A stretch of 64,000 nucleotides of DNA from Deinococcales bacterium (GCA_031414595.1 JANNVX010000088.1:29787-93786); one strand, 5' to 3'; numbered from the stretch's first letter, positions 15,791 through 17,361 are shown. Made by a program: numbers and translations. Notes: generated from the sequence alone by a model not told the origin.

Positions 15791-16531
15791 TTGATGGTTG
15801 CCGTGAAAGCCATCCTAGAAACCGTTTCGCATGACAAATGCTTTGTCGTTGACGACCTCAGAGCCGCTAATTTCTTGACCGACCCGCGAACCAGCATTTT
15901 GATTGAACCGTTTGTCGAACAAGAAAGCACGATTACTGGCGCAGCCGAACGGGTGGGAGTCTCGAGTTTACGGATGTTTAGAGCCGTGCAACGTATGGAA
16001 GAACTGGGGTTAATCCGCGTTGCCAAAGCCACACCGCGCCGTGGCAGACCGCAAAAGCATTACCGCGCTGTGGCAGACCGCTTCTTTGTGCCTTATAACA
16101 CCATCGGGTCTGACACCTTAGAAGATTTTTTACTCGAGCAAGACGACCGAGTACGCCGCGTTTTATTCAGGTGCTTATCTCTGCATATGCAGGAAATTCT
16201 AGGCGATGAATCTCAACCCGGACGGGTGATTCGCCGCAGTGCTGGGACACTCGAGCAAATCGGGCGGATGGAAGCCTATTCGGTCGCCAATCTGCACGAA
16301 GCCAATTGTGAAAAACCCACACCGTTATTATCGAGCGAACACAGCCTAGGTTGGAGCGACTACGCTGCCCTGACCTTAGACCGAGAATCTGCCCTCGAGT
16401 TACGCCGCGAACTGACAGCGCTTTTTTCTAAGTACAGTAAGCCCCGTGGAAAACAGCAATTTTTGTTTCGCAGTGCGCTTGCACCGGTGCGCGAATCGCT
16501 GGCGGATTTACTCGATAAACCTAAACGGTAA
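15791..16531 (+). CDS. winged-helix (ArsR/MarR-like) DNA-binding protein
   Basis: N-terminal ILIEPFVEQESTITGAAERVGVSSLRMFRAVQRMEELGLIRV resembles a wHTH. The remainder is unassigned. Confidence 0.5.
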   Translation: MMVAVKAILETVSHDKCFVVDDLRAANFLTDPRTSILIEPFVEQESTITGAAERVGVSSLRMFRAVQRMEELGLIRVAKATPRRGRPQKHYRAVADRFFVPYNTIGSDTLEDFLLEQDDRVRRVLFRCLSLHMQEILGDESQPGRVIRRSAGTLEQIGRMEAYSVANLHEANCEKPTPLLSSEHSLGWSDYAALTLDRESALELRRELTALFSKYSKPRGKQQFLFRSALAPVRESLADLLDKPKR

Positions 16532-16540
16532 ATTTGTCAC

Positions 16541-16903
16541 TAGAGCCTCCGAAAGGTCTGAAATTCTTAGAAATTTTCGTCAAACACCTAAATAGAAAAA
16601 CAGGGCGAACACGGGGGTTCGCCCCTACCTCACGCGTTTTTCATGCCATGGTTGTAGGGACAGGCGACCATGCCCGTCAGGTGCGCGTTTATGGTCAAGA
16701 CACCCCTGTGTCTGTCCTGTAACCAACTAAAAGTGGCGAACCGTTTGACCCGAATTGGGCAGTAAAACACAAAGGGGTAGCTGTCGGGACTTGACAAATC
16801 AATACAGTTGCTACCTCACGCATTGTTATGCCATGGTTGTAGGGACAGACCCCTGTGTCTGTCCTGTAACCAACGATGAAATGGCATTCTTTCGGAGGCT
16901 CTA
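16541..16903. mobile_element. MITE-like non-autonomous element (363 bp)
   Basis: 15-bp terminal inverted repeats TAGAGCCTCCGAAAG (16541-16555) / CTTTCGGAGGCTCTA (16889-16903). Flanked by a direct ATTTGTCAC (16532-16540 and 16904-16912). Carries two internal copies of a ~65-bp hairpin module. Confidence 0.6.
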
Positions 16904-16995
16904 ATTTGTCACCTCGAGTACGTCTTCCTAATAATTATAGGAGTAAACTGTTGGGGTTGACGCTTCAAGCGTCTTGAATTTCGGAGGACACTGAA

Positions 16996-17361
16996 ATGGG
17001 AAAATATATTAACTTAACCGATGCAGACTTTGACAATCAAATCTCTAAGGGTTTAACGCTGGTGGATTTCTGGGCAGAATGGTGTCCGCCGTGTCGTGCG
17101 GTTGCCCCAACCATCGAAAAACTTGGTGATGAGTACGACGGGCAAGTAACTGTGGCAAAAGTAGATGTGGATGCCAACCAACAAACCGCCATGAAATTTC
17201 GGGTTATGAGCATTCCAACTGTGATTCTGTTTAAGGACGGCGAACCTGTTGAACTGATGGTTGGAGCAGATATGAGCGGCAATAAGTACCGTGCGATGAT
17301 TGCCAAGCACAACACCAGCACTGTCTCGGTCGGCGAAAAAGTCTTGCAACCAACGGCATAA
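16996..17361 (+). CDS. trxA: thioredoxin
   Basis: DFWAEWCPPCRAVAP active-site region (CPPC instead of the canonical CGPC), MSIPTVILFKDGE. 121 aa. Confidence 0.9.
   Translation: MGKYINLTDADFDNQISKGLTLVDFWAEWCPPCRAVAPTIEKLGDEYDGQVTVAKVDVDANQQTAMKFRVMSIPTVILFKDGEPVELMVGADMSGNKYRAMIAKHNTSTVSVGEKVLQPTA

Follow-up and report, generated by a model that had tools for sequence, protein, structure and literature searches.

The segment at positions 16541-16903 of the window, the whole 64,000-nucleotide (64-kb) stretch of DNA analysed here, is with a probability of about 0.88 a copy of a non-autonomous transposable element (MITE), and belongs to a family that was confined, within the search, to an uncultured, CTCGAG-saturated Deinococcales lineage. 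This reading stands because the corresponding site is empty in relatives and because the element is present in multiple, dispersed copies. A MITE had been proposed in an earlier note on this DNA, and the terminal inverted repeats (TIRs), the target duplications, the small non-coding size, the dispersal and the empty and filled sites expected of one were all found; every feature of a MITE that could be tested is present, except for a cognate insertion sequence (IS). No paper on this MITE family was found in the literature. The family is previously undescribed and in itself an ordinary kind of element, with an interior that is unusually modular and rich in hairpins. With its TIRs, duplications, empty sites and recent burst, it provides a documented MITE family for a phylum in which few have been described.

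The window copy is 363 bp long. Its two TIRs are complementary to each other at 15 of 15 positions, and outside both of them lies a 9-bp direct repeat that is identical at 9 of 9 positions, so that the ends and the target duplication previously reported for this element proved exact. A 10-nt direct repeat reported by a tool overlaps the last A of the right repeat. The element follows the stop codon of the regulator gene upstream of it at a distance of 9 bp and ends 92 bp before the ATG of trxA, the latter distance being given earlier as 90 bp. The features of the locus are as follows.

15791-16531, plus strand: upstream gene, a putative transcriptional regulator of 246 aa, with weak MarR_2/HTH matches
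16532-16540, no strand: left target-site duplication ATTTGTCAC, the same as 16904-16912
16541-16555, plus strand: left TIR TAGAGCCTCCGAAAG, a sequence that ends nearly all copies of the family
16556-16601, plus strand: left arm, variable, with low column conservation in the family alignment
16602-16628, minus strand: hairpin unit A, GTAGGGGCGAACCCCCGTGTTCGCCCT, a REP-like GTAG hairpin found by the GTAG-hairpin scan and nearly invariant in the family
16629-16653, plus strand: copy 1 of the spacer that separates the GTAG ends, variable among copies
16654-16718, plus strand: hairpin unit B in its long form, GTAGGGACAG + 38-nt module + ACCCCTGTGTCTGTCCT, identical in independent copies of other genomes
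16664-16701, plus strand: 38-nt inner hairpin module, GCGACCATGCCCGTCAGGTGCGCGTTTATGGTCAAGAC, scored at 63 bits by covariance model R1
16719-16727, plus strand: tail of module copy 1, GTAACCAAC
16728-16810, no strand: segment X, 83 bp, found only in the window copy, with no match in other copies, in other loci or in the rest of the window
16811-16874, plus strand: second module, made up of CTAC and spacer (16811-16838), unit B in its short form (16839-16865) and the tail GTAACCAAC (16866-16874)
16875-16888, plus strand: right arm, from the family alignment
16889-16903, minus strand: right TIR (CTTTCGGAGGCTCTA on the plus strand), with GGAGG inside it, facing outward
16904-16912, no strand: right target-site duplication ATTTGTCAC, with TTGTCA, a -35-like hexamer, inside it
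16996-17361, plus strand: downstream gene trxA, thioredoxin (Pfam Thioredoxin, E = 9e-29)

The active-site motif of this thioredoxin is WCPPC, whereas the canonical one is WCGPC. The ORFs inside the element gave no Pfam match, in agreement with the earlier statement that no transposase is encoded there. A 62-aa ORF within the element had been dismissed as spurious, and this also holds: besides the missing Pfam match, its relatives in a protein search are three short ORFs, all located within other copies of the element and with different starts. These three are found in metagenome contigs and one NCBI MAG, beside unrelated genes.

A check of copy number by BLASTN and genome comparison, which had been put forward as a test of the MITE reading, returned a multi-copy family that is dispersed over unrelated intergenic sites with the same TIRs and with duplications of 8-9 bp. 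An exact 20-mer from the invariant part of unit B is present at 35 loci in three MAGs named 'Deinococcales bacterium', namely JAAFJQ01 (at least 17 loci), JAYWHB01 (at least 15) and JANNEE01 (at least 3), and BLASTN found the whole element at most of them. The TIR scan identified the same TIR at both ends in at least 20 copies; together with BLASTN it gave 22 complete copies besides that of the window, ranging from 168 to 217 bp. These include a short form of 177-180 bp and a long form of 214-217 bp, the latter having the 38-nt module in either unit B or unit A. Perfect 9-bp target duplications flank 12 of the 22 complete copies and perfect 8-bp duplications another 4, their sequences being unrelated between sites, while 6 have no clean duplication. 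All of the 24 copies examined are intergenic, several of them just 3-16 bp past a stop codon, and the neighbouring genes (glnA, a LysR gene and many others) are unrelated to each other. The 11 short copies in JAAFJQ01 share a mean identity of 99.3%, which indicates a recent burst. The G+C content of the family is 49%, with G+C-rich GTAG hairpins. Truncated or solo fragments of the family are found at L011/L029, L019, L023, L027 and L043, and nothing else in the rest of the 64-kb window resembles the element.

Two Logan assemblies, built from public sequencing runs, encode an identical TrxA, and both begin exactly at window position 16875, the start of the 29-nt right end of the element. Breaks at this point are as expected from the behaviour of de Bruijn assemblers at a repeat, with the right end repeated in that genome, and the family accounts for the breaking of contigs in MAGs from this lineage. 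The k-mers ATGCCATGGTTGTAGGGACAG and CCCCTGTGTCTGTCCTGTAACC gave no match in the genome_contigs and metagenome_contigs collections, respectively, each of them spanning positions found in the window copy alone; a second k-mer scan of the metagenome contigs again gave none. The core of unit B has no match in viral contigs. Ten viral matches to the module motif were rejected as coding, ARQV-type chance matches without stems, a single viral match to the TIR plus 3 nt as coding and due to chance, and the BLASTN matches in the plasmid collection as chance matches of 27-33 nt.

Empty and filled sites were located through orthologues of the regulator with 79-98% identity. At L062, whose regulator is 88% identical to that of the window, the site is empty: 92 bp separate the two genes, and a single orthologous 9-mer TTGGTTAGC stands where the window has ATTTGTCAC twice. 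The site is likewise empty at L063-L065 (regulator 82% identical), so that the comparison with relatives proposed earlier yielded sites without the element between flanks that are 82-88% identical. At L060 (regulator 88% identical) the orthologous spot is filled by a copy in the opposite orientation with its own 8-bp duplication TGGTTGGC, while L057/L058 (regulator 98% identical) possess a single-module long form at the site and in the orientation of the window copy. At least two independent insertions thus occurred at the same spot between the regulator and trxA. Single-copy status together with conservation of the locus in distant relatives had been named as the outcome that would speak against a mobile element, and neither part of it was observed.

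That outcome would have pointed to a structured RNA gene rather than to a mobile element. An RNA gene of this kind, or a leader regulating trxA in cis, would account for the strong fold of the whole window element (z about -5 on either strand), the compensatory changes in the stem of the 38-nt module described below, the conservation of the hairpin units in situ and the location in the upstream region of trxA, but either is extremely improbable in view of the empty locus in relatives whose flanking genes are 82-88% identical, the copies beside genes as unrelated as glnA and a LysR gene, the two orientations at the trxA site and the target duplications. Nor does Rfam offer a match: the 64-kb window contains one tRNA and nothing else at the gathering threshold, and a search of 16300-17100 at E up to 10 gave two chance-level matches only (E > 1).

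Two junctions at the regulator show further changes. In the 98%-identical relative L057, about 50 extra bp (L057:2018-2073) separate the element from the stop codon of the regulator, and resemble a partial duplicate of the 3' end of the gene together with the ancestral, target-like sequence TTGGTT(C)AGC; rearrangement has occurred at this junction more than once. In one metagenome assembly (L059:1370-1561) the element at the regulator runs past unit B into a different locus, without right arm and without trxA, the cause being either rearrangement mediated by the MITE or a chimera assembled across the repeat.

The interior of the MITE follows a canonical order: TIR TAGAGCCTCCGAAAG, variable left arm, unit A, a spacer of about 25 nt, unit B, short right arm and right TIR. 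Unit A has the structure GTAGGGGCGAAC-CCCCGT-GTTCGCCCT on the minus strand and unit B the structure GTAGGGACAGAC-CCCTGT-GTCTGTCCT on the plus strand, so that their GTAG ends face each other across the spacer. The GTAG-hairpin scan found a GTAGGG start with a stem of 8-9 bp in units A and B and in five solo hairpins with other stems, located outside the element at L015:1653, L019:975, L019:1087, L004:2487 and L022:2158. This REP-like nature of the hairpins is absent from the earlier note, which had instead recognized a repeated module, CTACCTCACGC...ATGCCATGGTTGTAGGGACAG...ACCCCTGTGTCTGTCCTGTAACCAAC, and a long hairpin formed by it. Both are borne out. The module occurs at 16625-16727 and at 16811-16874, and the two occurrences have exact blocks of 21 nt and 26 nt in common, of which none are expected in shuffles; the short module folds with a core stem of 9 bp, to which GGTT/AACC and ATGCCA/TGGCAT are added (DNA MFE -14.2 kcal/mol, z = -3.2). 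Unit A by itself folds as DNA at -9.1 kcal/mol (z = -3.0) and is followed on the minus strand by a T-run with a terminator-like match, so that it looks like a predicted intrinsic terminator. The idea that this terminator is placed behind gene ends was rejected, as about 8 of 23 copies are so placed, no more than by chance, and no orientation bias was found.

A survey of the window plus roughly 320 kb from related loci identified no autonomous element, no further TIR pair and no transposase gene. CTCGAG-free islands of at least 800 bp, taken as flags of foreign DNA, were considered as a source of the transposase and rejected, since the products of their ORFs (a protease, a GGDEF protein, an ABC-type binding protein and the like) are not transposases. 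Target duplications of 8-9 bp are typical of several DDE families, the IS families that make them including IS1, IS256, IS4/IS10/IS50 and IS5/IS903, and those of the present family are compatible with a transposase of the IS4/IS1/IS256 type. The terminal TAGAG... of the family presumably does not fit the typical ends of IS1, IS4, IS256 and IS903. The GTAG hairpins raise the possibility of a Y1 tyrosine transposase that acts on part of the element.

It is very improbable that the whole element is a REP doublet of the REPIN/BIME type, in which a Y1/HUH transposase acts on the GTAGGG hairpins and the TIRs are incidental. Target duplications are not known from the Y1 transposition of REPs. Spread without target duplication is not what is seen here: the complete element is flanked by duplications of 8-9 bp, which are clean in 16-17 copies and lie exactly outside the 15-bp TIR, and the TIRs are as conserved as the hairpins, although the hairpin units are the best-conserved part of the element, as a REP doublet would have it. 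Both hairpins start with GTAGGG and have their GTAG ends inward, the arrangement that Di Nocera et al. 2013 (PMC3733652) call a 'TT dimer', and the spacer of about 25 nt falls inside the 20-100 bp range of that study. Solo GTAGGG hairpins with other stems outside the element, as well as the occurrence of spacer and unit B without arms at L023 and as the second module of the window, are also in its favour. No Y1/RAYT-like ORF was detected by a motif scan and by tblastn with approximate Y1 probes in about 380 kb, a small part of these genomes.

Within the MITE, the 38-nt module distinguishes the forms of the family. It was noted previously as about 38 extra bp interrupting the first copy of the repeated module; the length is exact (38 nt at 16664-16701), but the interruption is not a one-off, since the same module recurs and defines the long form. 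Its general form is GC-stem-GCCCGNCAGGTGC-N5-6-stem-AAGA(A/C). Three pairs of the 6-bp stem have compensatory changes, and the stem is 91.7% paired, versus 17-46% with the partners slid. The module is found after GTAGGGACAG in unit B, where it gives rise to the long form, after GTAGGGG in unit A (L016, L017 and L060), and in the apical loop of solo hairpins (L004:2502 and L022:2173), always in the same orientation relative to GTAG. On otherwise identical backbones in JAAFJQ01, copies occur without the module, with the module in B (L031) and with the module in A (L016/L017), a variation in presence and position which shows that the module is gained or lost quickly. The module of L060 carries a further insert of 41 nt at its own loop apex. 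Movement of the module by template switching between similar hairpins, or by some enzyme, is possible.

The three positions of the module, its fixed orientation, its presence or absence on identical backbones in one MAG and the 41-nt insert of L060 are the grounds for a more elaborate and rather doubtful reading, according to which the family is a hybrid that joins a cut-and-paste chassis to a payload, under constraint, of a GTAG REP heterodimer, the 38-nt module being a very small insertional unit able to move from hairpin to hairpin. If true, it would imply a process of hairpin-targeted insertion or template switching that has not yet been described, or a HUH enzyme acting on the module. The REP-dimer interior and the movable module are unusual, but establish no new mechanism.

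Two further loci, L013:1577 and L034:3225, share the loop motif GCCCGA.AGGTGC with the module and were rejected as copies of it, as they belong to a different conserved sequence. This is a 26-nt motif, GAGGCGCGARYAGCCCGAMAGGTGCT, at two intergenic sites (L013:1577-1602, minus strand, and L034:3225-3250, plus strand). It has a compensated 5-bp stem, ACAGC/GCTGT versus GTAGC/GCTAT, which in L013 is situated within a long outer helix. The motif has no match in Rfam and no copy in the window, and may represent an undescribed structured RNA.

Conservation within the element was assessed by comparing the window copy with that of L057, which has the same site and orientation and flanking genes with 93-95% DNA identity, so that the two copies are probably the same ancestral insertion. 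The hairpin units are identical at 92 of 92 positions and the TIRs at 29 of 30, whereas the arms and spacer are identical at 56 of 94, with 38 differences (Fisher p = 7e-14). The same pattern is found across the family alignment, in which the TIRs are as conserved as the hairpins and the arms are variable. Because the pattern holds both for this pair and family-wide, the hairpin units are a constrained payload and no mere filler, kept by either purifying selection or gene conversion. The conservation of hairpins against fast-evolving arms, together with a 38-nt module that comes and goes, provides a lead on REP-like hairpins as functional payloads.

Compared with the canonical long form, the window copy contains 147 extra bp (16728-16874), which consist of segment X (83 bp) and a second CTAC-spacer-unit B in the short form; canonical copies have one module. 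The GGTT...AACCAAC variants are found in both modules of the window and in no other member of the family, and for this reason an internal duplication in the window lineage is the best reading of the second module. The alternative is a fusion of two members, in which a long form that lost its right arm is followed by a short form whose left 83 nt, now segment X, have diverged. The lengths are suggestive, since X, the second module and the right end add up to 176 nt, near the 177-180 nt of the short form, and X, at 83 nt, is just 1 nt shorter than the left part of the canonical element (84 nt); the family also includes truncated and solo fragments. The candidate derivation of X from a diverged or inverted piece of the canonical element was rejected, however, as 99 of 300 shuffles score as well on either strand, so that no significant similarity links X to the left part of the canonical element, and unit A, which that part should contain, is nearly invariant in all other copies. 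A fusion would also have to explain the variants that the two modules share with no other copy and the one perfect 9-bp duplication around the whole structure, and is the weaker and an unlikely alternative to internal duplication.

With internal duplication as the preferred reading, the history of the copy may be reconstructed from the comparison as follows. A transposase supplied in trans would bind the TIRs and cut the target with a stagger of 8-9 bp, and repair of the gaps would give the duplication. A long form would have inserted in this way 9 bp past the stop codon of the MarR-like regulator and 92 bp before trxA, probably in the common ancestor of the window and L057 genomes. In the window lineage, spacer and unit B would then have been duplicated internally, along with 83 bp of DNA. 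Finally, one of the two module copies would have gained or lost the 38-nt module.

The insertion was most likely near-neutral for trxA, a view suggested by the duplicated target, which holds the -35-like hexamer and would thereby leave the promoter-proximal copy intact; if TTGTCA is the -35 of trxA, the duplication preserved it. A promoter-like match, TTGTCA-18-AATAAT at 16906-16935, was rejected as the trxA promoter, as one such match against 1.2 expected is at chance level and the same tool gives no such match for the empty site of L062. The spot between regulator and trxA, with a -35-like hexamer just past the upstream stop codon, was hit independently at least twice, and a change in thioredoxin expression can be tested there. 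In the window, the ribosome-binding site of trxA is closely preceded by a small hairpin, GACGC-loop-GCGTC followed by TTGAA (16959-16973), which recurs with the same stem and other loops in L062 (TAGATA) and L060 (AAAA), and may be a leader or attenuator structure. The 9-mer TTTCGGAGG is common to the right TIR (16890-16898) and the trxA ribosome-binding region (16979-16987). Both TIRs carry GGAGG facing outward, and an insertion near a start codon could on this account donate a Shine-Dalgarno sequence.

The palindrome CTCGAG is found 369 times in the 64-kb window (for example at 16394, 16913 and 17415), or once per 173 bp, about 26-fold in excess of the roughly 14 occurrences expected from composition. 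As noted earlier, the element contains none in this saturated genome. The resulting gap of 519 bp is by itself mildly unusual, but CTCGAG is also absent from 23 copies of the family (4,491 bp), while host DNA has 4-9 per kb. The same density of 4-9 per kb is found in every related Deinococcales contig (L012-L066), including the three MAGs. CTCGAG is far denser here than the cyanobacterial HIP1 palindrome, and no paper linking CTCGAG with 'highly iterated palindrome' was found in the literature. A CTCGAG-free family in hosts that have one such site per 110-250 bp is a potential internal clock or probe for the accumulation of palindromes. Two other features of related contigs may be recorded here. 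L060:3750-5523 encodes an IMP dehydrogenase of 863 aa with a Hom_end_hint (intein) match, its orthologue in L062 having 486 aa, and L004:1117-1177 matches the Rfam DUF3800-IX RNA (39 bits; gathering threshold 36.8) beside a DUF3800 gene.

In format, the closest of the known systems are the Chunjie and Nezha MITEs. Chunjie, from Geobacter uraniireducens (Chen et al. 2008), is according to its summary in Delihas 2011 (PMC3184786) 178-235 bp long, with TIRs of about 20 bp and 9-bp direct repeats, and is strongly folding, intergenic, non-coding and A+T-rich. The Deinococcales family resembles it in size, TIRs, 9-bp repeats, folding and intergenic, non-coding sites, but has a G+C content of 49% and a host of a different phylum; the two are likened by description, and no sequence relationship is expected. 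The Nezha MITE of Anabaena/Nostoc (Zhou et al. 2008), as summarized in the same review, is one whose mobility was likewise inferred from empty and filled orthologous sites, with TIRs, direct repeats and a stable predicted fold. Its TIRs are shared with a known IS, ISNpu3, whereas the window and some 320 kb from related loci yielded no such partner for the Deinococcales family. The interior is similar to the GTAG REP dimers, REPINs and BIMEs (PMC3733652), which also combine GTAG with an imperfect palindrome, form inverted pairs with GTAG inward (TT dimer), include heterodimers with differing loop length and are accompanied by solo units in the genome. Those dimers possess neither a separate 15-bp TIR nor duplications of 8-9 bp, and the Deinococcales element has both. 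Finally, the Correia (CREE/NEMIS) and ERIC elements (PMC3184786) are MITEs likewise found beside genes in long and short forms that differ by an internal block, and can carry terminator- or promoter-like signals, as does the element described here. They are flanked by TA instead of a duplication of 8-9 bp, and their internal variation is a simple indel, whereas in the Deinococcales family it consists of a hairpin module that is located in either of two hairpins.
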